DNA of 64,000 nt from Candidatus Latescibacterota bacterium (GCA_965198115.1 OZ240241.1:608001-672000); one strand, 5' to 3'. Counted from the stretch's first letter, positions 47,225 through 63,551 are shown. The notes: a model not told the origin generated them from the letters alone. Made by a program: numbers and translations.

Positions 47225-47863
47225 ATCGAACAGCCTGTAGAAGCCTACCCGCTGCAATGGCCGGCGGGATTCGAACGCGAAAACGATCCTCAGCCGTCGC
47301 GATTTTGGAAACCCTGGAGATCGGGTGGTGGCGATCGTCGGCATTCGGTCGATGAAGCACGGTATTTCGTGCAGCACGAGATCCACAGCCTGCAATACCG
47401 CGGAGACTCAGACACGGTTGTGATCAGTACCAATCTCCAGCTCCGACAGGACGGATACCCGAGGTCTGGCCAGCGCGAGCCTGATGACCAGGGCGTTGCG
47501 ATCTACTTCGATTACGACGGAGACTGGCGCGTCTTGGCCTGTGATCGGTGGAACCGAATCGCCTGCAACATCTGGGCGATCGCCAAGACCATCGAAGCGA
47601 TGCGCGGTATCGATCGCTGGGGCGTGAGTGACATGCTCAACCGTGCTTTCCTCGGTTTCAAAGGACTCCCGGAAGAGGGCAGCGGGCGACCGTGGTGGAA
47701 GACCCTCGGGCTGAACGGCGACGCACGATCGTACACCCAGGACGAAGTCAAGGTCGCATTCCGGACGCTGTCGAAGAAAATGCATCCCGACGTCGGTGGA
47801 GCTCCAGAGGAATGGCATGAACTTCAGACCGCTTACAAGCAAGCGATGGAGGCGACGGCGTGA
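47225..47863 (+). CDS. Phage protein with C-terminal J domain
   Basis: AYPLQWPAG N-terminal motif, VISTN, ACDRW, MHPDVGG (HPD). The frame opens at ATC 47225. Confidence 0.8.
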   Translation: MEQPVEAYPLQWPAGFERENDPQPSRFWKPWRSGGGDRRHSVDEARYFVQHEIHSLQYRGDSDTVVISTNLQLRQDGYPRSGQREPDDQGVAIYFDYDGDWRVLACDRWNRIACNIWAIAKTIEAMRGIDRWGVSDMLNRAFLGFKGLPEEGSGRPWWKTLGLNGDARSYTQDEVKVAFRTLSKKMHPDVGGAPEEWHELQTAYKQAMEATA

Positions 47864-48258
47864 CCGAGTGTGCGAAGACTGCGGCGATGACTGTAAACGT
47901 CGACAGGATGGCGCACCACCTTCGCTCGCTGATGAAGGCCGAGGTGCTGAAGCTCCTGAAGCTGGGCGTGTGCTCCTGCCGCGCCCTGGAACGGTCGCTG
48001 CGAACTAAGGGCTACGGTCCCCTGCTCGGCGCGAACGGCGCAAGAGCCGTGGACCGCCTGGTGCTGGAGCTGCGCCACGACGACGGGCAGGCGATCTGTG
48101 CGATGGAGGTCGTCACCACCGACATCGTCTACACGCTCGCAGGTATCCACCAGCGGGGGCCGATGCGAGTGAGGAAATCGGTGAAGCCGGAGCAGCTTAA
48201 GAAGACATCCCCCTCTAATTCACTCTCCCCACGAAAGGATGTAGACGAATGCCAGTAG
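47860..48258 (+). CDS. Hypothetical phage protein
   Basis: GTGA-coupled ORF. Confidence 0.55.
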   Translation: MTECAKTAAMTVNVDRMAHHLRSLMKAEVLKLLKLGVCSCRALERSLRTKGYGPLLGANGARAVDRLVLELRHDDGQAICAMEVVTTDIVYTLAGIHQRGPMRVRKSVKPEQLKKTSPSNSLSPRKDVDECQ

Positions 48259-49880
48259 AAACAGGGTTGCACGAGCTGCCGACTGAAGACCTCATCCCCA
48301 CTCCGAAGTTGCACGAGCTGCTGACCAAGGACCTCATCCCCACCGAGGACAACAAGCGGAAGGTCGATCCGAACTCGCCCGACATCCTCGAGCTTACACA
48401 GTCGGTCAAGGAGGTGGGTGTGCTGCAGCCGGTTCTGGTGCGCCCTCACCCTCAGAAAGCTGGCAAGTGGGACCTGCGTGCCGGCCATCGTCGACTGGTG
48501 GCGGCCAGGCTCGCCGACTTGGAAACGATCCCTGCGATCGTCGCTGATCTGGATGACCGTCGCGCAGCTGAGATCACGACCGTCGAGAACCTGCAGCGTG
48601 AGGACCTCTCGCCGATCGAGGAGGCCGAGCAGCTGCAGGTCATGATCGATGCGGGATGGGATATGGGGGCTTGCGCGGTGTCGATCGGGAAGGACCTGGC
48701 GTGGGTCCACTCTCGCGCCCGAATCTCCAAGCTGATCCCGGAGTTTAAGGAATTCGAGCTGGATGACGGGAGGCTGCTTTACGAAGCCTGGAGCATCGCC
48801 CACCTCGAGATGATCGCTCGCTATCCGGAAAACACGCAGAAAGAGATCTTTGCGATTTTCGAGAGGCGACATTACGTCCCGGATCTCGGGGACCTGAGGG
48901 GGACGATCGGTCGGCTCACGAACGAGCTGGACAAGGCGTCATTCGATCCGGAGGACCTCGAACTGGTGCCCGAAGCGACGTGTCCTGACTGCCCAAAACG
49001 CCGTGGTCATCATCCTGATCTGTTTCAGGAACTGGGACCCTCCATCCCGCTGAAAGAGGACGTTTGTCTGGACCCCGAATGCTACGCGATGAAGTCCCGG
49101 GTCCACGGGGAGAACGTCCTGAAGAAAGCGCAAGAGAAGGACGACAGGACGGTGGCCGTCGCAAAGATGCCGTATCACGACGAGTATCAGAAACCCGGGT
49201 CCACAAGCTATATGACTGACTACCGCCCAGCCAAGAAAGCCGACAGGGGCGCGATTCCAGCCGTCGTTGTCGGGGGCGAAGGGAAGATCGGAAGAAAGGT
49301 GTGGGTCAAGCCCACGTCCGGCTCGGGATCCTCAAGTTCCACGAAGACCGGGAAGAAGACGCTGGCCGAGAAGAAGACGGCGTTGGAGCAGCGTCGGATG
49401 CGGCACGCCCGGGCGGCGATGTGGGAGAAGATCGAGAAGATGGAGGCGGCTCCCAAAAAACCGCTGACTTGGTATGGTCAGATGATCGCCGCCGGTGCCT
49501 ATGACAGGGGGTTTGAACGCTGGAACGCAGCCGATATGGCCGCAGCCAAAAACAAGGACCTGCTAGAACACCTGTGGACTGGTATTTGGCAAGGGCTTGA
49601 AGGATACCCGCTGTTCGATGTGAACGACCGGGAGATCCCACCGAGGAAGCAGAAGGAACTTGAAGTGCTGGGTAACGAACTCGGGATCAGTTGGAAGGAT
49701 CTGGTGGCTGCCGCTGTGGAGGCCATTCCCGTCCCGAAAGCTTGGGCTGAGGAGGAGGCCGCGAAGGCGAAGGCCTCGAGCAACGGCCAGGCGAAGAAGG
49801 CACGAACCAAGAAGACGCCGAGAAAAGCGAAGAAGACGAAGCGGACCAGGAAGGTGACAAAAAAGGCCGATCGGTCGTGA
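48249..49880 (+). CDS. ParB/RepB/Spo0J-family protein
   Basis: GVLQPVLVRP, AGHRR, ENLQREDLSPIEEA, CPDCPK...C..P.CY, lysine-rich tail. Confidence 0.9.
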   Translation: MPVETGLHELPTEDLIPTPKLHELLTKDLIPTEDNKRKVDPNSPDILELTQSVKEVGVLQPVLVRPHPQKAGKWDLRAGHRRLVAARLADLETIPAIVADLDDRRAAEITTVENLQREDLSPIEEAEQLQVMIDAGWDMGACAVSIGKDLAWVHSRARISKLIPEFKEFELDDGRLLYEAWSIAHLEMIARYPENTQKEIFAIFERRHYVPDLGDLRGTIGRLTNELDKASFDPEDLELVPEATCPDCPKRRGHHPDLFQELGPSIPLKEDVCLDPECYAMKSRVHGENVLKKAQEKDDRTVAVAKMPYHDEYQKPGSTSYMTDYRPAKKADRGAIPAVVVGGEGKIGRKVWVKPTSGSGSSSSTKTGKKTLAEKKTALEQRRMRHARAAMWEKIEKMEAAPKKPLTWYGQMIAAGAYDRGFERWNAADMAAAKNKDLLEHLWTGIWQGLEGYPLFDVNDREIPPRKQKELEVLGNELGISWKDLVAAAVEAIPVPKAWAEEEAAKAKASSNGQAKKARTKKTPRKAKKTKRTRKVTKKADRS

Positions 49881-49962
49881 TGGAATCATCTCCTCCCACA
49901 ACACGCAGCCGCCAACGCGTCATTGTCGGCGGTGCCTTCGACTGGCTACGGGACGCGGAGCC

Positions 49963-49991
49963 TTGACAGCGTGTGTATGAGGGTCTAAGTT
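49963..49991 (+). promoter_or_regulatory. Probable late promoter
   Basis: TTGACA-17bp-TAAGTT at the early/late boundary. Confidence 0.65.
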
Positions 49992-50053
49992 TGCTCTTGG
50001 AGCCGCTCAACACCGAACGGAGGAAAGTCTTGGTTGATTGACAAAGACGGGTT

Positions 50054-50168
50054 CTGACATCGTGAGAGGCAGTACTCCTGCGCAGGGGATCGTTCCCGTA
50101 GGTCGCGGGTAGTAGCGAGCTGTAACGGCCGCATTCGTGAAAAATCACGGGTGCGGCCGTTTTCGTTT
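50054..50168 (+). ncRNA. Three-hairpin cis-regulatory element with overlapping intrinsic terminator, copy 1
   Basis: 84-nt repeat unit, terminator aacggccgcattcgtga-aaaa-tcacgggtgcggccgtt-ttcgttt. Confidence 0.65.
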
Positions 50169-50275
50169 GAGGAGAGAACGTGGACCTTTGCAGTGTTTTT
50201 CCAAGCTGATGAGCGGTGCGGCTCTGATCCTGGCGGCGCCGGCGCGGCCCTCGAGATGGCCCGGGACACTGTTCT

Positions 50276-50542
50276 ATGGCGGGTGAGAATCTGAATCGAG
50301 AGTTGGGCGCGATCCAGGCGACGCTGAACGCGGTGAAGGAGGACGTCCAGCGCCTGGACGTGAAGTTGGACGAGGTTCTTCATGCGATTCCCAGCCACGA
50401 AGAACAGCTAAAAAGCCACGCGGCGCAGCTCGCGTCATTTCGTGCGTGGCGCAACGGGCTGTTCGGTAAGGCCGTGGCCCTGCTCGGGGCCGCCGGCGCG
50501 CTCGGGGCGGGTATCAGCTGGTTCTTCGCTCGGACGAACTGA
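50276..50542 (+). CDS. Coiled-coil protein with C-terminal TM (XhlA/holin-like)
   Basis: Heptad pattern followed by AVALLGAAGALGAGISWFF. Confidence 0.65.
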   Translation: MAGENLNRELGAIQATLNAVKEDVQRLDVKLDEVLHAIPSHEEQLKSHAAQLASFRAWRNGLFGKAVALLGAAGALGAGISWFFARTN

Positions 50543-52314
50543 TGAGAGCCCCCACTACTTTGGAGTTTGCGATGAAATATGACGGGAACAAACACATCCT
50601 GCTGCGGAACCAGGCGCACAAGGCGAAGCTGACACCCGAGGAGTTTTCCGGGTTCGAACGACACCTCAAAGAGAGCGGGGTAACGGTTTTCGATGTAGAG
50701 GTGCCCGATTGGCCGCCCGCGGAAAAGTCGCCTCTGCAACTTGGTGGTGGCAATCCGTTCGAGGGCGAGTCCTGGGAGGGCACTCAGCCGGCGATCTCCA
50801 ACTCGGATTACGCCGGGCGCCGGCTGGTCACGAAGCTCGCCCGTGAAATGGCCGGGCCCCGACTCGCGCCGAAACGACTGGCCTATCAATGGCAGGTTCC
50901 CGAATTCGATCCCGAGCGACACATTCTGATGCGCCAATGGCTGGCCGAAAATGAGGTGTCGATCGTCGATTTCCTTCGTGAATACATTCCCAAAGTCAGA
51001 AAAGAGATTGGACGAGATCCGCTGTTCGAGGTTGCAAACCCACACGCCCAGGCTGAGAGTGATGCAGGAGGGGGCTACAGTCCTACCCGCCGTGCGCTCG
51101 CCATTGACGACCTCCTTGTTCTGAATAAGTTTGCCCAAGTTTCGGAACGGTTCACCTACGACTCGGACCAGCCCGTCACCTGGGTGCGTGCCCTGGACGA
51201 CTCCCGCTGGGAAGCACGACGTCAACATCCTCCGCAGCAAGAGCGGTGGGAGAATCACCGCTCTTGGATTAACCGCACGATCGGTGATGGCGCCTGGACC
51301 GAGGAAGACCGAGGGCCGGAAGGCCATGCCTTCGGCCCGTTCATGGAGCTATGGGACGACGGGGCGATGCAGCTCTGGTGTTACAAGCGGGCACTATCTT
51401 TCCTCGAGGACAACGCGCTGATTATCAACGGTGTTTCCGTCTCTTTCACCCCGGAGAAGATCGGGCACGTGTGTCGCATGGTCGGTCACGTGGAAAATGT
51501 ATCCGCGATACTGGGCATTGCCCCCGAACGCATCCAAGCGGAAAAGAGAATACAACAACCGCTTAGAATCGACTGTCACTTCGAGCAAAAGGGCAACGGA
51601 CCGTTCTGGCATCTGGGAGCGAATCCGAGCTCGCCCTTCCATCGTGCAAGCGAAAGGCCCCCGCTGGTCTTCCGCTTGCACAACGACGGTTCAGGGCAAG
51701 TCCGTGCGTGGGGCGATAAGTCGCTGCTCGACGGTTTTACTCTGAATGGGGTTGGTCTGTATGACTTTGCGCCGTGGCAGTCCGGTTTCCGCATTCAGGT
51801 AGATGCGGCGGACACAGAGATAATTCTTGAACGTGATAGATCCTCGCAGCCTCTTCCTGTCGACCCAAAGCCATCTCCACCCAGCGACGTGACGGATGGT
51901 GCAAGTGCTTATTCTCCTGCATCAGTCATCAATGCGTTGCAAGAGACCTTGGGCCGAAGCGTGTCGCTATTTGGACGTTCTGCGTCTGATAGTGCGGTGG
52001 TCGCCCTCACCCGGCAGGGCCTGAATAAATTCCTGCTGGACGATTTGTCGGATCGTGACCTCTACGTGACCGACGCGGGAGGACGCAACTACGACTGCGA
52101 AAACTTCGCCGAGCGGCTGAGGGTTAATCTCGCAGTGGCGCACGGTGTGAATGGCTGCATGGTCATCTGGGGCGACGGTCATGCTTTCAACGCTTTCGCC
52201 GTTGTCGGTTCGGCGGGTCCTGACATCGTGCTCGTGGAGCCCCAGACCGATGAGATCGTGACCTCGCCGGAAAGGGAGTACAGCATCGAGCGCCGCGCGG
52301 AGGTGCTCCTGTAA
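50542..52314 (+). CDS. 590-aa protein with C-terminal papain/transglutaminase-like (MOA Agglutinin_C-like) cysteine protease domain
   Basis: YDCENFA...GHAFNAF...VEPQTD after a proline-rich linker. N-terminal region not recognised. Confidence 0.7.
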   Translation: MRAPTTLEFAMKYDGNKHILLRNQAHKAKLTPEEFSGFERHLKESGVTVFDVEVPDWPPAEKSPLQLGGGNPFEGESWEGTQPAISNSDYAGRRLVTKLAREMAGPRLAPKRLAYQWQVPEFDPERHILMRQWLAENEVSIVDFLREYIPKVRKEIGRDPLFEVANPHAQAESDAGGGYSPTRRALAIDDLLVLNKFAQVSERFTYDSDQPVTWVRALDDSRWEARRQHPPQQERWENHRSWINRTIGDGAWTEEDRGPEGHAFGPFMELWDDGAMQLWCYKRALSFLEDNALIINGVSVSFTPEKIGHVCRMVGHVENVSAILGIAPERIQAEKRIQQPLRIDCHFEQKGNGPFWHLGANPSSPFHRASERPPLVFRLHNDGSGQVRAWGDKSLLDGFTLNGVGLYDFAPWQSGFRIQVDAADTEIILERDRSSQPLPVDPKPSPPSDVTDGASAYSPASVINALQETLGRSVSLFGRSASDSAVVALTRQGLNKFLLDDLSDRDLYVTDAGGRNYDCENFAERLRVNLAVAHGVNGCMVIWGDGHAFNAFAVVGSAGPDIVLVEPQTDEIVTSPEREYSIERRAEVLL

Positions 52315-52320
52315 TCGCAC

Positions 52321-52491
52321 ATGAGCAAACTGGATCTGGACGCGATTGAAGAGATGTCGCGGTTGCCGTCGGGCGTCGCGTCGGCGCTGCGAAAGAAGTT
52401 GGTCTACCTCCAGGGCCAGGAGGCTGGCATCCACGTCGTGCAATCACGGATTCTTCGAATTCTCACTGAGAAGGAAGTGGAGCAGTCCTGA
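52321..52491 (+). CDS. 56-aa hypothetical protein (not in the ORF track)
   Basis: MSKLDLDAIEEMSRL...EKEVEQS*, whose stop codon is the first TGA of repeat copy 2. Confidence 0.55.
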   Translation: MSKLDLDAIEEMSRLPSGVASALRKKLVYLQGQEAGIHVVQSRILRILTEKEVEQS

Positions 52492-52607
52492 CATTGTGAG
52501 AGTAGTACTCCTGCGCAGGGGATAGTTCCCGTAGGCCGCGGGCAGTAGCGAGCTGTAACGGCCGCATTCGATGGATTGGAGTTCCCATCGAGTGTCGGCC
52601 TTTTTTT
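52488..52607 (+). ncRNA. Three-hairpin cis-regulatory element with overlapping intrinsic terminator, copy 2
   Basis: 83-nt repeat unit, terminator ggccgcattcgatgg-loop-ccatcgagtgtcggcc-ttttttt. Confidence 0.65.
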
Positions 52608-52665
52608 GTTTCTGTGGCGCACACGTAACCCTGGTCGAATCGAACCCACCCACGAGGCAAATTCA

Positions 52666-52929
52666 TTGGCTGATTTATTCGAGAATTATTCAGCAGGCCT
52701 AACCTCGCCGCTGTCGCGCTCGGAGGTCGCCGACGTGTCGGCGGAGGACCACACGTTCACAAACGTCACTCGGGCCGTTCTCCTAAGCGAGGGTGTTGTC
52801 GTCATGCGGCTGGTGGGCGACGAGGCCGACTTGACGTTGACCGTGACCGGCGGAGCCTTCCTGCCGCTCAGGGTCGCGGTCGTGCGCAACACGGGGACCA
52901 CCGCGACGTCCGTGGTGGGGTTGTGGTGA
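52666..52929 (+). CDS. Head-spike base protein (RcGTA Rcc01079-like)
   Basis: TTG start with gagg RBS, DLFENYSAGLTSP...TRAV...LPLRV...TGTTATSVVGLW. Confidence 0.7.
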   Translation: MADLFENYSAGLTSPLSRSEVADVSAEDHTFTNVTRAVLLSEGVVVMRLVGDEADLTLTVTGGAFLPLRVAVVRNTGTTATSVVGLW

Positions 52930-53378
52930 TGGCCGAAGTTGGCGTGGGGACGTCGATCACGATGACCTACGGCCGCATCGTCGCCGGGTCGAAGGGGCGA
53001 GTCCCGTTAACGGGAGAAGCTGTCCGCGCGACGATCACGGCGGGGGCCGACGAAATCTATCGGGAAGGGATTCACGGTTCTGCCACCGGCGACCTGGAGA
53101 TCACGAGCAGCCTGGTCATCAATCGCGTCCGGCTGCGGCCGGACCGCCAATTATTCACCGTGAACGTACGGGGTGACGACGCATTCCCTAGCTGGGTTTT
53201 TGGCGAAGGTGCCGGCAAATCCTTCTATCTCCTGATCGAGGGCACCGCGCATGAGTTTGAAGTCCAGGACTCGCGCTCCGGGGGCGGGTTTATAACCTGG
53301 GTTGCCGTCGACATCCCGGCACCCGATGCGGGCACCACGGTCACGCTGATCGTGGCGGATAGCGGAGCAATAGTGTAA
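52929..53378 (+). CDS. Beta-rich virion protein, possible head spike or fibre
   Basis: Coupled to the spike-base gene, starts MAEVGVGTSIT. Confidence 0.5.
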   Translation: MAEVGVGTSITMTYGRIVAGSKGRVPLTGEAVRATITAGADEIYREGIHGSATGDLEITSSLVINRVRLRPDRQLFTVNVRGDDAFPSWVFGEGAGKSFYLLIEGTAHEFEVQDSRSGGGFITWVAVDIPAPDAGTTVTLIVADSGAIV

Positions 53379-53389
53379 GGGGTCAGCGG

Positions 53390-53794
53390 ATGAGTTTTGA
53401 ATACGAACAGCAGTACGCCTACAGGCTTAGCCAGCGCAAAGGCTTCCTGCTAGACCGTCAACTGCAGATGTATGGCGGAGAAGTCAACCATCCCCTCTTC
53501 AGCCCCCGGTCCACCGGGGTGATCGTGGAGCCGGGGTATGCGTGGGATGGCCCGAGCGGCCCCACGATCGACACGACGAACGCCATCCGGGCGTCACTGC
53601 TTCACGACGTGCTCTACCAAGCCATGCGTGAGAAGTTGATTCCAAGGAAACGCAACCGCCGCATCGCCGACGCAGCGTTTCGAAAGATTCTCAAAGAGGA
53701 CGGCATGCACTCCTTCAGGCGGTGGTTGTGGTGGATCACCGTCCGTCTGTTCGGAGGATACGCAGTCAAACCACAAACGAGGGATAGACGATGA
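53390..53794 (+). CDS. DUF1353-like protein
   Basis: GYAWDGPS...ASLLHDVLYQ...AD...VRLFG. Confidence 0.75.
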   Translation: MSFEYEQQYAYRLSQRKGFLLDRQLQMYGGEVNHPLFSPRSTGVIVEPGYAWDGPSGPTIDTTNAIRASLLHDVLYQAMREKLIPRKRNRRIADAAFRKILKEDGMHSFRRWLWWITVRLFGGYAVKPQTRDRR

Positions 53795-54198
53795 GTGTCT
53801 TGCTCGAAGATCTCAAGCGCGACGAGGGGTTTTCTCTGACGCCATATGAGGACAGCGAGGGCCTGCTGACGATCGGCTACGGCACGCTGATCGAGGAGAT
53901 TTCGAAAGAAGAGGCCCAGTGGCTCCTCGAGCACCGCCTGGAGAAGATCGTCGCCGAGCTCGTCGCTGCCGTGCCGTTCGTCGTCGATCTTCCCGCATCT
54001 GTCCAGCGTGGCCTGCACAACATGGCTTATAACCTGGGCGTACCTCGTCTCCTGGGTTTTAAAAACATGTGGGCGGCGTTGGAGGCTGGTGATTACGCGC
54101 GCGTGGCGACCGAGGCACTGGATTCGAAGTGGGCTGGACAGGTGGGCCCCCGTTCCGAGCGCATCGCGGCCTTATTCAGGAGCGCACAGGATGGCTAA
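53791..54198 (+). CDS. Endolysin (T4-type lysozyme)
   Basis: LKRDEG...YEDSEGLLTIGYG...NMAYNLG...DSKWAGQVGPR. Confidence 0.9.
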   Translation: MSVLLEDLKRDEGFSLTPYEDSEGLLTIGYGTLIEEISKEEAQWLLEHRLEKIVAELVAAVPFVVDLPASVQRGLHNMAYNLGVPRLLGFKNMWAALEAGDYARVATEALDSKWAGQVGPRSERIAALFRSAQDG

Positions 54199-54739
54199 CC
54201 CATTCTCATCCCTGGGCAAGGCGGTCGGCAAGATCGCCCCCGGCATCGCGTCGATGTTGGGATCCTCGGCCGGTGGCCCCATCGGCAGCGCACTGGCTTC
54301 CGACGCCGTCAAGGGCGTGGCCAAAGCCCTGGGCGTAAAGACCGAAGCGCCTGAGGCCTTGCTGCAAGCCCTGGAGAAGGCCACGCCCAGACAGCTGGAG
54401 GCGATACGCGCGGCCGACCACGACTTTCAGGTGCAGATGCGCAAACTCGGCCTCGAAGAGGAGGCCATACACCACAAAGACCGTTTGTCGGCGCGGGGGC
54501 GGGAAACCCTCGTCGGCGGCCGCACCACGCCCGCCCTTGCCGCCGTGACCGTGGCCGGATTCGTCGGCACCGTGGCCGTGGTCCTGTGGCTCGAAGGACG
54601 CGTCGACTCATCGCTCGGCGACTCCGTCCTCGCCGGTGCCGTCGTCGGCTACATCTCCGCCAAAGCCGACCAGGTCATCTCCTACTACTTCGGCTCCTCC
54701 TCGACCAGCGACGAGATGATCAAGAATGGGAAAAAGTAG
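54191..54739 (+). CDS. Holin-like membrane protein
   Basis: DRLSARGRE, two TM segments, VISYYFGSS, adjacent to the endolysin. Confidence 0.7.
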   Translation: MANPFSSLGKAVGKIAPGIASMLGSSAGGPIGSALASDAVKGVAKALGVKTEAPEALLQALEKATPRQLEAIRAADHDFQVQMRKLGLEEEAIHHKDRLSARGRETLVGGRTTPALAAVTVAGFVGTVAVVLWLEGRVDSSLGDSVLAGAVVGYISAKADQVISYYFGSSSTSDEMIKNGKK

Positions 54740-54741
54740 AC

Positions 54742-55077
54742 GTGAGCGCCACGACCTTCGAACGCGATTCGTCGGCCGCCCGCGGCTACGCCCGCAGATG
54801 GAGGAAGGCGCGGGCGGCGTTTTTGCGAAAAAACCCGCTGTGTGTGATGTGCCGGGCCGAGGGCAAAACCCGAGAGGCTCACGTGGTGGACCACATCATC
54901 CCGCACAAGGGGGACAGGAAGCTGTTCTGGGATCGATCGAACTGGCAGGGCCTGTGCACGGCGCATCACTCGGGAGCCAAGCAGGCTCTCGAGCGGCGCG
55001 GCTACGGCAGGCAGGTAGGAGCAGACGGCTGGCCCCTGGACCCGAACCATCCGGCCAACCGTGGAGTTAGTTCATAA
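54742..55077 (+). CDS. Packaging-associated HNH endonuclease (HK97 gp74-like)
   Basis: RGY..RWRKAR..FL..NPLCVMC...VDHIIPHKGD..LFWD..NWQGLC..HH. Confidence 0.9.
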   Translation: MSATTFERDSSAARGYARRWRKARAAFLRKNPLCVMCRAEGKTREAHVVDHIIPHKGDRKLFWDRSNWQGLCTAHHSGAKQALERRGYGRQVGADGWPLDPNHPANRGVSS

Positions 55078-55086
55078 AGGGGGGAC

Positions 55087-55422
55087 TTACTCATAGCTGA
55101 GCCCTCGCGCCAGGAACGTTGTGGCGAGCTGGTTCAGGCTCACGCCTTCGGCCGCCGCGCGCTTGGCAAGTTGCATGTGCAGACTTTTGGGTATCCGCTG
55201 GACAAACTGTCCGCTGTAGGACTTGGGCTTGGGCAGCTCATCACGGTCTTCCCTTTCGGCAGCCACCCAGGCATCGAAGGCGTCGCGCGCTTCGGAGATC
55301 GCCTCCTCGAAGGTGGTGCCGTCGGCCATGCATCCAGGCAGATCGGGAACGAGGACCAGGAAGCCGCCGCCGTCCTCTTCGTGAAGGGGAGTAACCGTGA
55401 TGGGATAGTCTTCAAATCTCAT
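55087..55422 (-). CDS. hicB: HicB antitoxin
   Basis: VPDLPGCMADG...SGQFVQRIPKSLH...EGVSLNQ. Confidence 0.9.
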   Translation of the reverse strand: MRFEDYPITVTPLHEEDGGGFLVLVPDLPGCMADGTTFEEAISEARDAFDAWVAAEREDRDELPKPKSYSGQFVQRIPKSLHMQLAKRAAAEGVSLNQLATTFLARGLSYE

Positions 55423-55657
55423 GACTTAAGCCCTCTTCGATGAGTGTTACCAGATGCTTGATGTAGACCGGCTTGATGGGTTTGTGCATCGGGATTGTCA
55501 GATGATGGCCCCGTGCGTTCGTAAGGACGGCGTGACTGGTTCCGCGTTGTCGGAGCGTCAGGTTGTGGGCTTTCGCCACCGTCTTGATGTTGTCGGGCGT
55601 CCAATCGCCTTTGGGGTTGGACTTCATTCGGGTAAGCAGTTTAGCGGCGTTTCCCAT
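55412..55657 (-). CDS. hicA: HicA toxin
   Basis: GTSH...LTIPMHKPIKPVYIK. Confidence 0.88.
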   Translation of the reverse strand: MGNAAKLLTRMKSNPKGDWTPDNIKTVAKAHNLTLRQRGTSHAVLTNARGHHLTIPMHKPIKPVYIKHLVTLIEEGLSHEI

Positions 55658-55665
55658 ACCTTAAT

Positions 55666-55683
55666 GATACTGTATATAGTATC
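55666..55683. promoter_or_regulatory. Palindromic operator upstream of hicA
   Basis: gatact-gtatat-agtatc. Confidence 0.5.
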
Positions 55684-55769
55684 TCATGTCGAGCAGTATC
55701 TCCCAAGGGGTAAGGGGGGTGTAAAACCCGCGAGCGTTCGGATGTAGACCGGTAGGGTCGTTTTTTTCT

Positions 55770-56222
55770 TTGGCGGCCAAAAATAAAAATCGGGCGGTGA
55801 GCGTGACGAAAAAGGGGTCAAAAGGGGTCAAGAAACGGCCGAGCCCGGGGAGGGGGCGTAGACCGAAGCCTCTGGCTCTGCACGTGGTGGAGGGGACGTT
55901 TCGTCGCCATCGGCACGGTGATCTCGATGCGGTTGTCGTGGCCGACCTCGAGATCGATCCTCCGAAGCGGCTTCCGCGTAAGCGGTTGCGGGAGCTGTGG
56001 GACCGGTATATCCGCACGGCATTTTGGCTGACGGACCACGACGGCCCGTCGGCGTATATGTGGGTGGTGCTGCAGGAGGAGTTCGAAAAGAATCCGAATA
56101 TGATAGCCTCGCGTATCGCGCAGCTCCGAGGGTTGGGAGCGGAGCTGGGGTTGAGCTATCGGAACAAGGCCCAAACCAGACCTGAAGGCCCGGAGTCGGA
56201 CAATGCCCGTTTCTTCGCGTAA
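55770..56222 (+). CDS. Terminase small subunit
   Basis: GRRPKP..LHVVEGT...PPKRL...ELGLS, upstream of the large subunit. Start uncertain. Confidence 0.8.
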   Translation: MAAKNKNRAVSVTKKGSKGVKKRPSPGRGRRPKPLALHVVEGTFRRHRHGDLDAVVVADLEIDPPKRLPRKRLRELWDRYIRTAFWLTDHDGPSAYMWVVLQEEFEKNPNMIASRIAQLRGLGAELGLSYRNKAQTRPEGPESDNARFFA

Positions 56223-57993
56223 GGGTCCGGCGTGTCCGGACCCGGTCACGTCGTATGCGCGGGCGGTGTTGCGGAAGCGCAAGCCGATTGTCGCCGGTCC
56301 TTACGTGCGTGGGGCGTGCCGACGCCACCTGCGCGATCTGAAAGCGAAAGATCGGGGGCTGCGGTGGGACTGCTCCTCGGCTCTGCGCGCCATCGCGTTT
56401 TTTCGGGACGTGCTGCGCCTGAACTCCGGGGCGTATGAGGGTAAGCCGTTCGTCCTTCTGCCGTGGCAGTGCTTCTTGGTGGGGTCTTTGTTCGGATGGA
56501 AGCAGGAGGATGGGTATCGCCGGTTCCGCCGCGCCTATATCGAGGGGGGGAAGGGCTGTGGGAAGACGCCTCTTTGCGCGGGCATCGGGCTGTATATGCT
56601 GTGCGCGGACGAGGAGCCGCGCGCGGAGGTGTATGTGGCGGCTTACAACCAGGACCAGGCCAAGGTGATGTTCCGGGACGCGGTGGCGATGGTGGAGCAG
56701 TCGCCGGACCTGTCGTCTCGTCTGCATCTCTCCGGCGGCCAGGAGAAGGACAACATCGCATATGTGAAGACGGGGTCGTTCTTCCGTCCGATCTCGTCGG
56801 AACGCCAGGGGCGGGGCAAGTCGGGCCCGAAGCCGCACTGCGCGTTGCTGGACGAGGTCCACGAGCATCCGACGAACGCGACGGTGGAGTTTTTGGCCGC
56901 CGGCGTGAAGGAGCGGAAGCAGCCGCTGACGGTAATGACCACGAATAGCGGGTCGGATCACGAGGGGGTGTGCTGGGAATATCACGAGTATGGACGCAAG
57001 GTTGCCGACGGCACGCTCGAGGACGACGGGTTTTTCTCGTATGTGTGTGCCCTGGACGAGGGCGAGGACCCGTTTGCGGACGAGGCGTGCTGGGAGAAGG
57101 TGAACCCGAGTCTTCCATCGATCCCGGGTTACGATTACCTGCGCCAGCAGGTGCGTCCGGCGCGGTCGATACTGTCTCAGGCGGCCGTGGTGCGGCGTCT
57201 GAACTTTTGCCAGTGGCGTTCTGATGGCACGGAAGCGTGGGTTTTGGAGGATCTGTGGCGTTCGTGCCAGAGCGACGCTCTGGATTTGGGGGATTATGAG
57301 GGCGCCCCCTGCGTCGGCGGCCTGGACCTGTCGCTGTCGAGTGCCCTGACGGCGCTCGTGCTGGCGTTCGAGGCCGGAGCGACCGGAGCGTCCGGTGCGG
57401 GCGGCGAGCGTGCTTGGGACGTGTTTTCGTGGTTTTGGATGCCGGGAGATCGGCTTTTCGAGTTCGAACAAAATGATGGTGTAGTCGGCCAGTATCAGGC
57501 GTGGAAAGAGGCCGGACATCTGTTTGCCCCTGCCGGCAGGGTGATCGACTACGGTCACGCGGCCGACCTGATCGTCAAGCTGTGTGCCCGTTTCGACGTG
57601 CAAGCCATCGCTTACGACCGCGCCAAGATCGAGCTCTTGCGGGCCGAACTCGACAAGCTGAGCGCCGACGTGCCGCTGATCGAGCACGGTCAGGGTTTCT
57701 ACAAGGCCAAAGATACGGGCCTGTGGATGCCGGGGTCGATCGAGGCGACGGAGGCGGCGATGCTGGAAGGGCGTCTTCGTGTAAGTGCGAATCCGGTGTT
57801 GAGCTTGTGCGTGGCCAACACGCAATGCAAGCCTTCGTCGATCAACCCTTCTGATCGACACTTCGACAAGCGGAAGTCGTCGGGCCGCATCGACGGGTCC
57901 GTGGCGCTGGTGCAGGCAATCGGGGCGGCGTGCTACGCCGACCTCAAGCCGAAAGCGAGTATCTACAACGAGCGCGGGCTGCTGGTGATCTAA
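56203..57993 (+). CDS. Terminase large subunit
   Basis: GKGCGKT, LLDEVHEH, GLDLS, RIDGSVA. Confidence 0.95.
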   Translation: MPVSSRKGPACPDPVTSYARAVLRKRKPIVAGPYVRGACRRHLRDLKAKDRGLRWDCSSALRAIAFFRDVLRLNSGAYEGKPFVLLPWQCFLVGSLFGWKQEDGYRRFRRAYIEGGKGCGKTPLCAGIGLYMLCADEEPRAEVYVAAYNQDQAKVMFRDAVAMVEQSPDLSSRLHLSGGQEKDNIAYVKTGSFFRPISSERQGRGKSGPKPHCALLDEVHEHPTNATVEFLAAGVKERKQPLTVMTTNSGSDHEGVCWEYHEYGRKVADGTLEDDGFFSYVCALDEGEDPFADEACWEKVNPSLPSIPGYDYLRQQVRPARSILSQAAVVRRLNFCQWRSDGTEAWVLEDLWRSCQSDALDLGDYEGAPCVGGLDLSLSSALTALVLAFEAGATGASGAGGERAWDVFSWFWMPGDRLFEFEQNDGVVGQYQAWKEAGHLFAPAGRVIDYGHAADLIVKLCARFDVQAIAYDRAKIELLRAELDKLSADVPLIEHGQGFYKAKDTGLWMPGSIEATEAAMLEGRLRVSANPVLSLCVANTQCKPSSINPSDRHFDKRKSSGRIDGSVALVQAIGAACYADLKPKASIYNERGLLVI

Positions 57994-57994
57994 A

Positions 57995-58147
57995 ATGCGA
58001 AGGAGAGCGGCGATAGCGGTCTATGGTTTCCTGGGCGTGGGGGTCGTGTCGTGCGGCCTCTACCAGTGGTGGGCGCCGTCGGCGTGGATGTTCGCCGGAG
58101 CGTGTTTCATCGTCGACGCTTTGCTGCTGAAGCGGGAGAGCCGGTGA
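57995..58147 (+). CDS. 50-aa 2-TM protein (not in the ORF track)
   Basis: MRRRAAIAVYGFLGVGVVSCGLYQWWAPSAWMFAGACFIVDALLLKRESR, TGATG overlap with the portal gene. Confidence 0.7.
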   Translation: MRRRAAIAVYGFLGVGVVSCGLYQWWAPSAWMFAGACFIVDALLLKRESR

Positions 58148-59439
58148 TGCTGAGCTTCCTGATCGAGCGCCGGGCGAGTAAAACGGCGGGTGTGGCGCTG
58201 TCACACCCGGTCTTAGCCGAATGGCTGGGCTCGGGCCCGATGAGCGCGGCGGGGCAGGCGGTGACGGTGAACACGGCGCTGCAGGCCTCGGCCGTCTATG
58301 CGTGTGTGCGCAACACGGCCGAGACGATCGCGTCGCTGCCGTGTGTGCTCAAGCGTGTCTCGCGTGACGAGGGCGGCCGCAAGCGGAGCGAGGACGCCGT
58401 CGGTCACCCGCTGTTTTCGGTGCTGCTGGAAACGCCGAACGCCTGGCAGACAGCGTTCGACTACTGGGAGATGGTGGTGGAGCACCTGGAGCTGCGCGGC
58501 AACCACTACGCGCGTGTCGTGCGCGACGGGAACGGGCAGACGGTGGCGCTAGAGCCGCTGCACCCCGACCGCGTGCGTCCCCTCTGGTCCAATGGGCGTC
58601 CGGCCTATGAAGTCCAGCCGAGGAAAGAAACAGGCAGGTCGGGGCGTGACATCCTGCTTTCCGATGAGATGTTTCACATACGGGGTCCGCTGCAGGGCGA
58701 CGGGCTTTTGGGTTCTTCGCCGATCCATATGCACCGCGAGACGATCGGACTGGCGCTGGCGGCGCGTAACTACGGCGCGCGGTTTTTTGCCAACGACGCG
58801 CGACCTTCTGGTGCGCTGACGGTGTTGGGGACGCTGGATGAAGAAGGGCACAAACGGCTGGCCCGGGAGTGGAAGGCCGCCTACGGCGGGGAGAACCGTC
58901 ACGGGACGGCCATCCTCGAAGAGGGAACGAAATATGAAAGCATCGCTATGTCGAACCAGGACGCCCAGTTCCTGGAGTTGATCGGGGCCACGGACCTGCA
59001 GATCGCGCGGCTGTTTCGGACGCCGCCCTACAAGATCGGGATCATTGAAAAGTCGACGCTCAACAACGTGGAGCAACAGAACCGGGCCTGGGTGACGGAC
59101 AAGCTGGCGCCGTTGGCTGAGCGTATCGAGGACGCCATCGCCCGGGACCTGCTGACGACGCGGGGCCGCCGCTCCCTCACGGCGCGGTTCGACTTCGCCG
59201 AACTGCTGCGGGGTGACATCAAGACGCGCACCGAAGCTAATGCCAAAAACATCCAGTGGGGCGTCCTGTCTCCCAACGACGTGCGGGAGCGCGAAGGCCT
59301 CAACCCGATCGGTCCCGAAGGCGACCTGTATGTGTCGCCGCTGAACATGCAGCCGATGGCCGCGCTCCTTTCCGCGCTGGAAGGGTCCGGCGGGTCCGGC
59401 GACGTTGAGCCTGAAGAAGAGGAGGAAGACGATGCCTGA
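58147..59439 (+). CDS. HK97-family portal protein
   Basis: AVYACVR..AETIASLP, PNAWQT, DAQFLE, IARLFR.PP, PNDVR. Confidence 0.95.
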   Translation: MLSFLIERRASKTAGVALSHPVLAEWLGSGPMSAAGQAVTVNTALQASAVYACVRNTAETIASLPCVLKRVSRDEGGRKRSEDAVGHPLFSVLLETPNAWQTAFDYWEMVVEHLELRGNHYARVVRDGNGQTVALEPLHPDRVRPLWSNGRPAYEVQPRKETGRSGRDILLSDEMFHIRGPLQGDGLLGSSPIHMHRETIGLALAARNYGARFFANDARPSGALTVLGTLDEEGHKRLAREWKAAYGGENRHGTAILEEGTKYESIAMSNQDAQFLELIGATDLQIARLFRTPPYKIGIIEKSTLNNVEQQNRAWVTDKLAPLAERIEDAIARDLLTTRGRRSLTARFDFAELLRGDIKTRTEANAKNIQWGVLSPNDVREREGLNPIGPEGDLYVSPLNMQPMAALLSALEGSGGSGDVEPEEEEEDDA

Positions 59440-60043
59440 GAGGAAGACGATGCCTGAAATGGAACGCCGATCGTTTCCCGGCGTGGAGGTGCGCGCCGAG
59501 GCCGCCGACGGCGAGGACATGCCCGCGATCGTGGGGCGCGCCGCCGTGTTCGACGCGTTGAGCGAGGAGATGTGGGGGTTCCGCGAAAGGATCGAAAAGG
59601 GGGCGTTTGCGGCCACGATCGCAGAAGACGACATCCGGGCGCTCGTCAACCACAGCCCCAACTACGTGCTGGGGCGCAACCGCTCTTCGACGCTGTCCCT
59701 GGCCGAAGACGACGACGGCCTGTCGGTGCGTATCGAGCCGCCGGATACGCGGTATACCCGCGACCTGGTGACGTCGATCGAGCGGAGCGACGTCTCGGGC
59801 ATGTCGATCGGGTTTCAGACCCTTACCGACGAATGGAACGTCGAGGATGGCGACCCGGTCAGGACGCTCAAGGCCGTGCGTCTGTTCGACGTGTCGGTGG
59901 TGACGTTCCCCGCCTATCCGCAGACCGACGTGGCGCTCAGGTCCCTTGTGGCGTTTCGGGAGCGATCGGCACGACCGATGCGATCGGTGCGGCGGGAGCT
60001 GGACCTGATGGAAGCCGGCTACGGCGTCAGGAGGGCGACGTGA
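59432..60043 (+). CDS. HK97-family prohead protease
   Basis: GFRERIEKGAF, ALVNH, GMSIGF, DVSVVTFPAY. Confidence 0.93.
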   Translation: MPERKTMPEMERRSFPGVEVRAEAADGEDMPAIVGRAAVFDALSEEMWGFRERIEKGAFAATIAEDDIRALVNHSPNYVLGRNRSSTLSLAEDDDGLSVRIEPPDTRYTRDLVTSIERSDVSGMSIGFQTLTDEWNVEDGDPVRTLKAVRLFDVSVVTFPAYPQTDVALRSLVAFRERSARPMRSVRRELDLMEAGYGVRRAT

Positions 60044-60199
60044 ACAGCGCGGCCCGTGGGACGGGAAGCGCGAGGTGCCGGAGGCTGTCGTGCAGGCCGC
60101 CGACATCCGGGAATGCCCCGAGCAGCTCCGTTGAGGACACATGGAAGACCATCTGCGGCAAGCCGGTATCGACAACCTGATCAAGGAAGGAGATGGAAG

Positions 60200-61432
60200 A
60201 TGAAGATAAAAGATCTGCTGGAGAAGCGGGCCCAGGTCGTGGCCGAGGCGCGAGCCATCGTCGACGGCATCGAGGCCGAGGAGAAGGAACGGGAGTTCAC
60301 CGCCGAGGAGCGGTCGAAGTATGATGCGCTGCTGGAGAAGGCCGGGCAGTTGACCGACCAGATTCAGGACGAGGAGCGTAAGCAGGAGCTCGCGCGCCAG
60401 GAGGCCGCGATCGACGCCGGAAACCCTGCCTCAGGAGGACAGCCCGAGACACGGGACCAGGCGGTGCTGCAAATGGACGGCTTCCGGTCGTGGATCACCC
60501 ACGGCATGGAAGCCGAGCGGCGCGACCCCGACGCCTTCTCCGAGTTCCGCGCGCAGTCTGTCGGTGTCGACACCGAGGGCGGGTATCTGGTCGCACCCCA
60601 GGAGTTCGTCAATGAGCTCATTCGCAACATCGACGATATGACCTACATCCGCTCCTGGGCGACCGTGCGGCGGCTGACGATGGCCACGAGCCTTGGCGTG
60701 CCCACCCTGGAATCGAGCCTCGACGATTACGCGTGGACCACGGAGATCGCGCCCGCAGCCGAAGACGAGGGTCTTCGCATCGGGAAGCGCGAGCTTCATC
60801 CGCAGCCGCTGGCGAAGCTGTTAAAGATGTCGAACCGGCTGCTCCGGCTGTCCGCCCAGGACGTCGACGGGCTGGTGCGCTCGGAGATGGCCCTCATCCT
60901 GGGCTATACCTACGAGAAGGCGTTCCTGATCGGCTCCGGCGCGAACCAGCCGCTCGGCGTGTTCACCGCGTCTTCCGACGGCATCCCGACGTCGCGCGAC
61001 GTGGCCACGGATAACACCGCTGTCGCCGTCACCACCGACGGCCTGATCGAGGCGAAGTTCGCGCTCAAGGCCGGCCACCGGCGCAACGCCCGCTGGCTGT
61101 TCCACAGAGACGCCATCAAGATGATCGCCAAGCTCAAGGACTCCGACGCCCAGTATATCTGGTCCGGGGCGGTGCGCGAGGGCGAGCCCGACAGGCTGCT
61201 GGGGCTGCCCTACTTCGAGAGCGAGTTCGCGCCCAACACGTTCACCACCGGACTCTACGTCGGCATCCTCGGCGACTTTTCCTACTACTGGATTGCCGAG
61301 GAAGCCTCGCTCCAGATCCAGCGCCTGAGCGAGCTGTTCGCCCGCACCGACCAGACCGGTCTCATCGCGCGCCCCTACATTGACGCCATGCCGGTGCTCG
61401 CCGAGGCGTTCGTGCGCGTCAAACTCAGCTGA
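60200..61432 (+). CDS. HK97-family major capsid protein
   Basis: N-terminal coiled-coil delta domain, GGYLVAP, GSGANQPLG, KLKDSD, LLGLP, GDFSYY. Confidence 0.95.
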   Translation: MKIKDLLEKRAQVVAEARAIVDGIEAEEKEREFTAEERSKYDALLEKAGQLTDQIQDEERKQELARQEAAIDAGNPASGGQPETRDQAVLQMDGFRSWITHGMEAERRDPDAFSEFRAQSVGVDTEGGYLVAPQEFVNELIRNIDDMTYIRSWATVRRLTMATSLGVPTLESSLDDYAWTTEIAPAAEDEGLRIGKRELHPQPLAKLLKMSNRLLRLSAQDVDGLVRSEMALILGYTYEKAFLIGSGANQPLGVFTASSDGIPTSRDVATDNTAVAVTTDGLIEAKFALKAGHRRNARWLFHRDAIKMIAKLKDSDAQYIWSGAVREGEPDRLLGLPYFESEFAPNTFTTGLYVGILGDFSYYWIAEEASLQIQRLSELFARTDQTGLIARPYIDAMPVLAEAFVRVKLS

Positions 61433-61503
61433 GCTGACACGGCACGCGACGGTCAAGGCGGCCCGATGAAGGCACAACCTGAAAGAAACGACAGGAGAAA
61501 ACT

Positions 61504-61950
61504 ATGGAATCTCTTTTGCGCAGCACCCTCGTCACCCGCGTCAAAGACGCGGTCACGGCGGGAGTGACGAAAGTCAGCGACGCCACCGTCGTCGACATGC
61601 AGAACTACGAAGGCGTGATGTTCATCGCCCTGTTCGGGACGCTGACGGCCAACCAGGTCACGTCCATCCACGCCGAGCAGGGCAAGACGGCGGCCCTGAC
61701 CGACAAAAACGACCTGGAGGGCACCCTGGTCGGGCCTCTGGCTGACGCCGACGACAACAAGCTGCTGATCCTCGACGTCAAGAACCCGACAGAGCGCTAC
61801 GTGCGTCTGGTCGTGAACCGCAAGACCGCCAACGCCGTCGTCGACGGCATCATCGCCATCCAGTATGGGCCGCGCAAGAAACCGACGAAACAGGGCACGA
61901 CCGTCGGGGTGGCCGAAGTGCACACGGGGCCCGATGAAGGCACAGCCTAA
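61504..61950 (+). CDS. Putative capsid decoration protein
   Basis: VDMQNYEGV...RYVRLVV, directly after the capsid gene, RBS aggag. Confidence 0.6.
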   Translation: MESLLRSTLVTRVKDAVTAGVTKVSDATVVDMQNYEGVMFIALFGTLTANQVTSIHAEQGKTAALTDKNDLEGTLVGPLADADDNKLLILDVKNPTERYVRLVVNRKTANAVVDGIIAIQYGPRKKPTKQGTTVGVAEVHTGPDEGTA

Positions 61951-61962
61951 AAGGAGCTGACG

Positions 61963-62196
61963 ATGCGAATCAAAATGCTGGCGCACATGGCCGGCCCCGA
62001 GGTGTCCGCCCACGCCGGAGATGAGGTCGACGTGGACGACAAACAGGCCACCGCCCTCATCTCCGGCGGCTATGCCCAGGCCGTGAAAGTCTCGGCCGAG
62101 CAGGCGACGACCGGACCGGAAGAAAAGGCTGTGGATCCGCCGGAAGGCCCGGCGGTGAAAGCCAAGCCGCGCAAGAGGCGAACCCGACGCTCGTAA
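61963..62196 (+). CDS. Small head-associated protein
   Basis: MRIKML...AGDEVDV...LISGGYA. Confidence 0.65.
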   Translation: MRIKMLAHMAGPEVSAHAGDEVDVDDKQATALISGGYAQAVKVSAEQATTGPEEKAVDPPEGPAVKAKPRKRRTRRS

Positions 62197-62199
62197 AGG

Positions 62200-62790
62200 A
62201 TGCCGCTGCGCTACGCCCTCACGCAGGTCACGCCGCCTGCTCGTCCCCCGCTCGAGCGGGATAAGGCGAAGGTCCACCTCAACGTCGACACGGACGATCA
62301 GGACGAAGACGCCCTGATCGACGCCCTGATCCAGGCGGCGCGGCGTCAGGCCGAGGTGTTTACGGGCAGGTCCCTGATCACGCAGACCTGGGAGATGAGG
62401 CTCGACACCTTCCCGGCGTGGGAGATCGAGGTGCCGCGGCCGCCGCTTCTGTCCGTCGAGGGCATCGTCTACGTAGACGCCCTCGGGAAGGAAAAGACCT
62501 TGCCCGCCACGGCATACCGCGTGGATGGCAAAAGCGCGCCCGCACGCATCACGCCGGCCTACGGAGAAACCTGGCCCGCCGCGCAGCCCGTGACCGGCGC
62601 CGTGGTCGTGACCTTCAAGGCCGGCTACGGCGACGCTCCCGACGATGTGCCCGAGGACATCCGCCAAGCGATGCTGCTGATGGTCGGGCGGTGGTACAGA
62701 TACCGCGAGGACCTCGTCGACGCGCCAATGGCCAAGGTGCCGTTCGGAGCTGAGAGCCTTCTGCGCCCCTACAGGATCTGGAGGGTGTAG
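62200..62790 (+). CDS. Head-tail connector (gp6-like)
   Basis: AKVHLNVD..DED.LI..LI.AAR..AE.FTGRSLITQTW...VPEDIRQAML. Confidence 0.9.
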   Translation: MPLRYALTQVTPPARPPLERDKAKVHLNVDTDDQDEDALIDALIQAARRQAEVFTGRSLITQTWEMRLDTFPAWEIEVPRPPLLSVEGIVYVDALGKEKTLPATAYRVDGKSAPARITPAYGETWPAAQPVTGAVVVTFKAGYGDAPDDVPEDIRQAMLLMVGRWYRYREDLVDAPMAKVPFGAESLLRPYRIWRV

Positions 62791-63108
62791 ATGAAGCTCG
62801 CAGCCGGCAGTTTTGACAGGAAGATCACGCTGCAGACAAGGCGGGTCCCCGACCCACACGGCGCGCCTGTCGAGGTGTGGGTCGACTTGGCAACCGTGCG
62901 AGCGCAGGTCGTCCAGCGGTCCGGGCGCGAGTTCTTTGGCACCGATCAGCTGCAGGCCGAGGCCCGCGTCATCTTTCGCATAAGGTGGAGGCGCGGCGTC
63001 ACGGCACAAGACCGCGTCGTCTACGACGGCCGCGCGCACGACATCCACGCGGTGATCGAAACCGGCCGCAAGGACGGCCTGGAGCTCTACACCACAACGA
63101 CAGGATGA
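62791..63108 (+). CDS. Head closure / head-tail adaptor
   Basis: AGSFDRKITLQ...SGREFF...FRIRWR. Confidence 0.88.
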   Translation: MKLAAGSFDRKITLQTRRVPDPHGAPVEVWVDLATVRAQVVQRSGREFFGTDQLQAEARVIFRIRWRRGVTAQDRVVYDGRAHDIHAVIETGRKDGLELYTTTTG

Positions 63109-63110
63109 CG

Positions 63111-63551
63111 ATGAAGCGCGACCCCCACCTCTTAAGGTGGCTGCTGCTGGAATCCGAAAAACACGACGGCCCGTTCCTGTCCTCCGAGCTGTCGCATCAA
63201 TCACATCGGTCGCTCGACGGCTACGTCCCGGACGCTCCGGGGGCTCCGGTCGCACCGGCGCAGATTGCGGGCCACGCCCGGCTGCTCTCCGATGCCGGCT
63301 TTCTCGACGGCGCCGACGCCGCGACGATGGGGGGCGACGACTTCCTGATCCGGCGCGTGACGTTTTCCGGATACAACTTCCTCGACGCCGTTCGCGACGA
63401 GAGAACGTGGCGGGAGACCTGCGACAGGATCAAAGCGGCCGGAGGGTCCGGTCCCTCCGGAGGAGGGTTCGACGTAGATCTGATCAAGGACGTAGCCGCC
63501 CTGATCGTCAGGGAAAACCTCGGGTTGGCAGGCGATGGCAACGAAGGTTGA
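63111..63551 (+). CDS. DUF2513-like winged-helix protein
   Basis: MKRDPHLLRWLLL...H..LL.DAG...TFSGYNFLDAVRD..TW. Confidence 0.8.
   Translation: MKRDPHLLRWLLLESEKHDGPFLSSELSHQSHRSLDGYVPDAPGAPVAPAQIAGHARLLSDAGFLDGADAATMGGDDFLIRRVTFSGYNFLDAVRDERTWRETCDRIKAAGGSGPSGGGFDVDLIKDVAALIVRENLGLAGDGNEG

Follow-up and report, generated by a model that had tools for sequence, protein, structure and literature searches.

The window analysed here is a stretch of 64,000 nucleotides (nt) from the genome of a Candidatus Latescibacterota bacterium (GCA_965198115.1 OZ240241.1:608001-672000). It holds a prophage in which an 84-nt element occurs twice ahead of the late genes, each time running into a predicted intrinsic terminator. 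According to the sequence comparisons, the element is real, conserved and not previously described, and its switching is predicted. The twin elements would serve as local RNA antiterminators of the late genes, similar to the ribonucleic antiterminator (RAT) of the bgl type, and would be stabilised by a phage protein after induction. The probability of this model-based reading is put at roughly 0.55. The features on which it depends are as follows.

50054..50137, + strand: element copy 1, 84 nt; the likeness between the copies starts at about 50051.
52488..52570, + strand: element copy 2, 83 nt.
50124..50168, + strand: predicted intrinsic terminator 1, 17 pairs, tail TTTTCGTTT; the 3' end of copy 1 forms its 5' arm.
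52560..52607, + strand: predicted intrinsic terminator 2, seven-T tail; the 3' end of copy 2 forms its 5' arm.
49963..49991, + strand: predicted late promoter TTGACA-17-TAAGTT, with the start predicted near 49998.

The two copies were aligned with 78 of 84 bases the same (BLAST 92.9%, E 3e-25). The five substitutions and one indel between them were those described in the initial annotation of this DNA. Only these two copies were found in the 8.43-Mb host genome by blastn, nhmmer and two covariance models, and the next nhmmer match had an E value of 8. The loops and 3' arms of terminators 1 and 2 differed, and the 3' side of stem P3, the last of three stems (P1, P2 and P3) that the initial annotation had drawn in the element, was their 5' arm. 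Both this sharing and the continued pairing of the differing 3' arms had been claimed there and were borne out by sequence and folding, with a third pairing version found in a related phage. The terminator hairpins were computed at -30.1 kcal/mol (terminator 1) and -24.8 kcal/mol (terminator 2). Before the 3' arm was made, the 5' arm was paired upstream with a probability of 0.98 for copy 1 and 0.86 for copy 2, and this upstream pairing gained 5.2 and 7.7 kcal/mol, respectively. A probability of 0.98 was reached by only 2 of 188 terminator-like hairpins of the genome, copy 1 being one of them; the control set includes copy 1, and copy 2 lies outside it and was computed separately. In the folding model, the terminators won unaided by 15.3 kcal/mol (terminator 1) and 8.0 kcal/mol (terminator 2). 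Hence, a binder would be needed.

The conservation of the element was explored in public sequencing runs. Nine runs contained the window stretch or part of it, none of them on record as RNA, and six of the nine were compared with the window. A related phage was present in runs X5, X6 and X8 (study P3) and in run X9 (study P4), and no piece on the element was among the matches listed for X3 and X4. The coding divergence of the related phage was about 8% (146 differences in 1700 positions of three aligned coding stretches), and its gene order was inferred from contigs broken at the repeat. A 305-nt contig carried the repeat at both ends, with terminator 1, seven letters and a 56-amino-acid (aa) open reading frame (ORF) between them; in another contig, the repeat was followed by a different terminator and then by the spike gene. 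A 13.5-kb contig joined the C-terminal part of a 132-aa ORF (48138 in the window) to the promoter piece (49960) with 27 letters between, skipping the gene of a ParB-like protein, and the element followed about 580 letters later. Compared with window copy 1, the element of the related phage had 3 differences in 88 positions and 0 in 73, and no related-phage piece at 80% on the spacers 3' of the terminators was among the matches listed. The repeat ended inside the terminator 5' arm in 4 of 4 copies from the two phages. Moreover, the terminator 3' arm of the related phage was a third version, fully Watson-Crick, in which two G.U pairs of terminator 1 become A-U. The second copy of the related phage resembled window copy 1 and not copy 2, from which it differed at an inferred 6 or so of 84 positions. 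Taken together, the comparison suggests old copies that were homogenised, not a recent duplication. A neutral recent duplication, which the initial annotation had named as the outcome that would speak against a switch, is argued against because the related phage, about 8% diverged, keeps both copies and has a third 3' arm that pairs.

The position of the promoter and of the late genes was the second line of evidence. The promoter placed before copy 1 in the initial annotation was present; it was not picked up by an E. coli-type promoter scan and fitted the consensus of the host. Across the genome, TTGACA followed by TANNNT occurred at 134 sites with a spacing of 17, compared with 29, 38 and 58 sites at spacings of 16, 18 and 20, and 4-16 sites at most other spacings. 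TAAGTT was among the commonest -10 versions in the host, and 22 of 74 tRNA genes had such a site upstream. A matrix was built from the genome's own TTGACA/TANNNT sites, with a cut-off of 9, and the site at 49963 scored 16.2, the best value between the attachment (att) sites attL and attR. A second host-type candidate, TTGACG-16-TAAGTT, scored 15.0 at 51104-51131 (+ strand), inside the gene of a 590-aa protein, and could drive the 56-aa ORF and copy 2. The matrix scan gave no host-type promoter directly before copy 2, and only one site above the cut-off, with a score of 9.7, on the + strand from terminator 2 to attR. The expression of about 22 kb of late genes would thus require read-through of terminator 2, and probably of both terminators, because there was no further good promoter.

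The element lies within a prophage that is inserted at tRNA-Pro and spans about 42.8 kb. The order of the prophage was lambdoid, namely, integrase, repressor region, recombination and replication, element, spike base, lysozyme, terminase, portal, capsid and tail. The gene 3' of copy 2 encoded a spike base protein (NF048002, E 1.7e-15), and lysozyme, terminase, portal and capsid then came, in agreement with the earlier assignment of copy 2 to a place before the spike, lysis and packaging genes.

33600..33646, + strand: attL at the tRNA-Pro 3' end, 47-bp att repeat.
76422-76468 (window-equivalent, beyond the window): attR, 47-bp copy, placed by the att repeat match.
52666..64000, + strand: late genes for spike base protein, DUF1353, lysozyme, HNH, terminase, portal, protease, capsid and connectors; the tail genes run on past the window end (64000).

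As a separate observation, a repressor-like gene was split over two frames (38790-39465, - strand), with the N-terminal part in one and, of a CI-like peptidase region, no more than the C-terminal half in the other; the parts matched phrog_6201 and phrog_4. The gene may be non-cleavable, decayed or an assembly slip, and this may bear on the inducibility of the prophage.

In the proposed mechanism, the promoter would fire in the lysogen, and a leader of about 170 nt would end at terminator 1, with terminator 2 as a second lock. After induction, a protein from the derepressed early operon would bind the nascent element. The bound element would keep the base of the terminator 5' arm in an upstream helix, which may be P3 or the hairpin H2 of an alternative fold, both of which contain that base, and the polymerase would thereby pass that single terminator. 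The presence of one copy per terminator points to local rather than processive action. A late-gene switch is the best reading because the layout, the conservation in a second phage and the three pairing 3' arms all fit it. The initial annotation had proposed an RNA-based late-gene switch with an aptamer-like fold and a ligand, a protein or an antisense RNA as trigger. The terminator-overlapping switch was in keeping with layout and conservation, whereas the aptamer-like fold, the ligand and the antisense RNA were not supported. Nothing in the analysis pointed to a small-molecule ligand. The antisense trigger was rejected: the best duplexes within the prophage had values of -54.2, -35.0 and -35.9, and the best of four shuffles, scanned on one strand at half density, had -50.0, -34.6 and -39.0.

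Two small proteins were considered as the binder.

47860..48258, + strand: 132-aa basic ORF (22 K+R, 14 D+E) of no known family; candidate trigger by position.
52321..52491, + strand: 56-aa ORF, closed by the TGA that stands at the 5' edge of copy 2; by position, a candidate trigger.

The most likely binder is the product of the 132-aa ORF, followed by that of the 56-aa ORF. In the related phage, the 132-aa ORF was the last early gene before the promoter, and its homologous C-terminal part ran straight into it. This ORF is favoured because it would be controlled by the repressor, which would tie the opening of the gates to induction. The 54 nt at its end (48085-48138) had one difference in the related phage, and no longer piece of the ORF was among the matches listed. 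In a search of 1.84 billion representatives, the 132-aa protein matched itself and, weakly, one 610-aa protein. A 98-residue model had a predicted local distance difference test (pLDDT) score of 57, which is low confidence, and the fold search (best Z 6.2) was uninformative; a winged-helix reading of the protein was unsupported. The 56-aa ORF was by itself between the copies of the related phage and, as a binder encoded between the gates like bglG, would give positive feedback. Its model consisted of a short helix and a long helix (pLDDT 88), the searches made gave no relatives, and the fold search had 0 matches at E 0.001. ParB was rejected as a regulator, and it is not needed for the element because a contig of the related phage skips it.

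The fold of the element was evaluated by pair probabilities and by the positions that vary among the copies. The three-stem fold of the initial annotation stood in part. P3 had pair probabilities of 0.86-0.99 in the isolated element, whereas P1 and P2 had 0.0 in both copies, and the change G50098A in the related phage broke a P2 pair. The P1/P2/P3 fold was about 9-11 kcal/mol above the minimum (-19.9 compared with -30.5 kcal/mol), and the minimum-energy fold had a long bulged stem at 50073-50114 beside P3. An alternative fold of two hairpins, H1 (50052-50087) and H2 (50101-50130), fitted 9 of 9 variable positions, four of them as C-G to U.G. The support for H1/H2 from the variable positions is weak because most transitions would be tolerated, the fold is above the minimum and no pair is changed on both sides.

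Several results weigh against the antiterminator reading and limit the probability given to it. For H1/H2, 83% of transitions would be tolerated in any case and the energy exceeds the minimum by 6-13 kcal/mol, and the earlier three-stem fold and the minimum-energy fold each break only 1 of 9 variable positions. Double-sided changes were found at 0 of 22 pairs between the window copies, with four copies from only two phages to compare; the covariation check proposed in the initial annotation thus gave no double-sided change inside the element. Copy 2 differs from its positional counterpart at about 6 of 84 positions, which equals the coding rate, and the conservation figures are not independent, as the copies look homogenised. 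A gain of at least the 5.2 kcal/mol of copy 1 from upstream pairing was computed for 57 of the 188 terminator-like hairpins. The terminator overlap is therefore energetically unremarkable in the model and weak evidence taken alone, and the case rests on conservation and position, the energy not carrying it. The element is 84 nt long, compared with a RAT stem-loop of about 30 nt in the excerpted account of PMC12591593. The 56-aa protein is charge-neutral, no Shine-Dalgarno sequence is visible before it in the related phage, and neither it nor the 132-aa protein shows an RNA-binding family or fold. Furthermore, termination and read-through at the RNA level are predictions from folding models.

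Among the other explanations, processive Q-like antitermination by an unrecognised protein that loads at the promoter is unlikely. The element would then simply form the body of a terminated leader RNA (comparable with lambda 6S or StxS, and perhaps trans-acting) and would have been copied once together with half a terminator. The layout is the same as that of pR'-tR', where an always-active promoter is terminated just downstream (PMC7547250, in part), the overlap energy is ordinary, and a 33-nt piece across the promoter was kept in the related phage, although it was seen in one of two comparisons only. Copy 2, however, lacks its own promoter and so would make no leader RNA, and both copies were kept in two phages. 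The earlier statement that no Q-like gene is recognisable agreed with the searches: PF06530 had 0 matches in the genome, with control matches in 2 of 14 genomes, a result that covers that Q family. No antiterminator, sigma or NusG family was found among 64 prophage ORF translations by PHROGs, or in the ORF subsets compared with Pfam (29 and 11) and NCBIfam (17).

A small-molecule riboswitch, in which the 84 nt would be an aptamer whose bound form blocks the terminator and ties the late genes to a host metabolite or second messenger, is distinctly improbable. The size of the element, a sequence that hardly varies, also in stretches that the minimum-energy fold leaves unpaired, several near-equal folds and the lack of a recognisable protein partner would suit such an RNA. 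The database searches spoke against it. In Rfam, the window gave only tRNA at the gathering level and nothing on the element, and at E up to 10 the stretch 49800-52800 gave three weak unrelated matches, none on the element; the initial annotation, which had placed the motif in no riboswitch class and proposed this search, was right on that point. Identities as twister, hammerhead, pistol, hepatitis delta virus (HDV)-like, C4 or T-box RNA were rejected for lack of Rfam support. A covariance model search, another kind of check proposed at the outset, found no further homologue in 132 genomes of the class, and DNA searches found none in 168 genomes of the phylum; among 101 relatives searched by DNA, the best non-self match had E 0.0125. 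Riboswitch classes are usually common to hosts as well. In addition, a metabolite gate alone would not separate lysogeny from lysis.

The searches of phage and metagenome collections were likewise negative. The element had no blastn match in 50,697 phage records, and the phage and plasmid searches gave nothing usable. Exact and gapped patterns gave 0, 0, 25, 1 and 35 stretches in IMG/VR, together with the best 120 of about 240 for one further pattern, and 0 and 20 stretches in the JGI metagenomes, none of which extended beyond the pattern. Extension was judged by eye or by model R2 (98 loci, including 96 of the 120 from IMG/VR; 18 loci, including 17 of the 20 from JGI). Two IMG/VR phage contigs, L102 (380-460, - strand) and L117 (370-450, + strand), shared an intergenic motif (about 80 nt) that matched nothing in Rfam, whose 3' side is overlapped by a hairpin and which, in L117, follows a type II hammerhead ribozyme (E 1.3e-06); a further pattern scan gave the motif in these two contigs only. 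This Bacillales-like motif was rejected as a homologue of the element, with 16 nt and GCAGT shared and R2 matching 14 positions (E 3.2), a probable chance likeness. A literature search with subscription papers mostly outside its scope brought up no paper that describes this element or, in a phage late operon, any repeated RNA overlapping a terminator. The motif was not found in the searched part of the PMC10690425 supplements (files 1, 2, 4 and three oversized files outside the search), and the main text of a 2025 review of RNA-binding antiterminators (PMC12591593) had no word beginning with 'phage'.

Ribosome-coupled attenuation, in which the folding of the element would be steered by a ribosome that stops on the TGA at its 5' edge, is very unlikely.

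50034..50057, + strand: possible 7-codon leader ORF (TTG start, GGAGG 10 nt upstream, stop at the TGA of the copy 1 5' edge); low confidence.

Both window copies open with a TGA that closes an ORF (the 7-codon ORF for copy 1 and the 56-aa ORF for copy 2), and the TGA context was unchanged before the second copy of the related phage. Among the differences listed, however, a 1-base insertion after 50049 and a different upstream sequence remove the 7-codon ORF before copy 1 of the related phage, and the stop may merely mark the edge of the duplication. Slightly less probable still is a put-like RNA that binds RNA polymerase directly for factor-free antitermination. In outline, a pair of neighbouring bulged stems (about 70-80 nt) present as two similar copies recalls putL/putR as far as PMC9378689 describes them. 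By the same partial account, put affects terminators at distances of up to 10 kb, so that a single copy would be enough, it is constitutive and would leave the late genes on, and its first duplex, AGACG, is not in the repeated unit; the element here also shares bases with a terminator. The least probable explanation is a DNA-level site or a neutral duplication beside plain terminators: the element alone folded no better than its shuffles (stability z -0.96 and -0.65), and copy 1 contains a perfect 10-bp palindrome (50077-50086), but both copies persist in a phage about 8% diverged while their flanks do not, the repeat ends exactly inside the terminator 5' arm in all four copies, and plain terminators without release would silence the late genes.

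The remaining features around the element are given below.

48249..49880, + strand: ParB-like protein, 543 aa.
49880..49966, + strand: 28-aa ORF overlapping the ParB stop, with its own stop codon within the -35 box; no family match in PHROGs or Pfam.
50276..52314, + strand: 88-aa ORF and 590-aa ORF, both skipped in the related phage.

The 88-aa ORF had a coiled coil and a hydrophobic end, with an XhlA match at E 0.12 only, and the 590-aa ORF had no family match. At 50180-50286 (+ strand), directly 3' of terminator 1, a strong GAGGAG stood before a 9-codon ORF; a 25-codon ORF coupled to it (50209-50286) reaches into the start of the 88-aa gene, and there was no family match. Among the late genes, a HicAB-type toxin-antitoxin pair with its own promoter candidate lay antisense between the HNH and small terminase genes (55087-55692, - strand). 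Two early ORFs (39997-40437 and 40680-41054) had a common 42-nt repeat (93%) and a similar C-terminal stretch, with no family match. A 99-100% identical duplication about 4.5 kb apart (21217-22657 and 25708-27143) is probably an insertion sequence, and 20 tRNA genes were arrayed in 2 kb outside the window (G000:C1:2870558-2872531).

To our knowledge, late-gene control has been worked out for few phages, nearly all of them with cultured hosts, and in many prophages neither a Q nor an activator can be recognised. If the antiterminator reading is true, a RAT-like gate repeated at every late terminator would differ as a solution from the processive Q of lambda, a function would be named for one of two orphan proteins (132 aa or 56 aa), and a compact RNA-protein switch would be at hand, testable by reporter since its promoter is of the sigma-70 type. 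The weight of these points is limited for now by the two phages and by prediction from sequence. A bolder claim is tentative and rather unlikely, namely, that this is a new class of late-gene switch, an 84-nt two-domain RNA that stands at each late terminator and is opened by a phage protein whose RNA-binding family would be new, while the 56-aa gene between the gates amplifies itself towards one-way lysis, or, less likely, an undescribed riboswitch aptamer tying lysis to a host signal.

Judged by sequence features, the element falls outside RAT, Q, put and ANTAR RNA. ANTAR RNA (NasR, EutV) consists of two hairpins with hexanucleotide loops that have A at position 1 and G at position 4 (PMC12591593, in excerpt). 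The H1/H2 fold would likewise be two hairpins with the second competing with the terminator, whereas no such A1/G4 loop was seen by eye in any fold considered here. ANTAR PF03861 had 0 matches in the genome, but control matches were also 0 of 14 genomes, and no ANTAR domain was found in the prophage ORFs scanned. HK022 putL and putR are two similar two-stem cis-acting RNAs in a lambdoid phage; put acts early, factor-free and processively through the beta' zinc-binding domain, and, in the portion of PMC9378689 concerned, it is not part of a terminator, and its conserved first duplex (AGACG and partner) is not in the repeat here. The likeness to lambdoid pR'-qut-tR' and Q is one of layout, with a host-type late promoter after the replication genes, a short leader, a terminator, and lysis and virion genes (PMC7547250, in part). 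In the related phage, the 132-aa ORF occupies the place that Q holds in lambda. The Q gene of the lambda late switch stands just before the late promoter. Here, by contrast, no match to the Q family PF06530 was found in the genome, and the conserved element is part of the predicted transcript, shares bases with the terminator and recurs 2.4 kb on at a second one. The closest likeness in arrangement is to BglG/SacY/LicT and RAT: BglG binds a region partly overlapping each terminator of the pair that flanks bglG (PMC9678765 and PMC12591593, in part), an upstream RNA element is predicted here to overlap part of each of two terminators, and one small gene lies between the two gates in the related phage, as bglG does. 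The CAT RNA-binding domain (CAT_RBD, PF03123) had 0 matches in the genome, with control matches in 4 of 14 genomes, and the element had no Rfam match; RAT governs sugar uptake in bgl, whereas the twin elements would govern the late genes of a phage.

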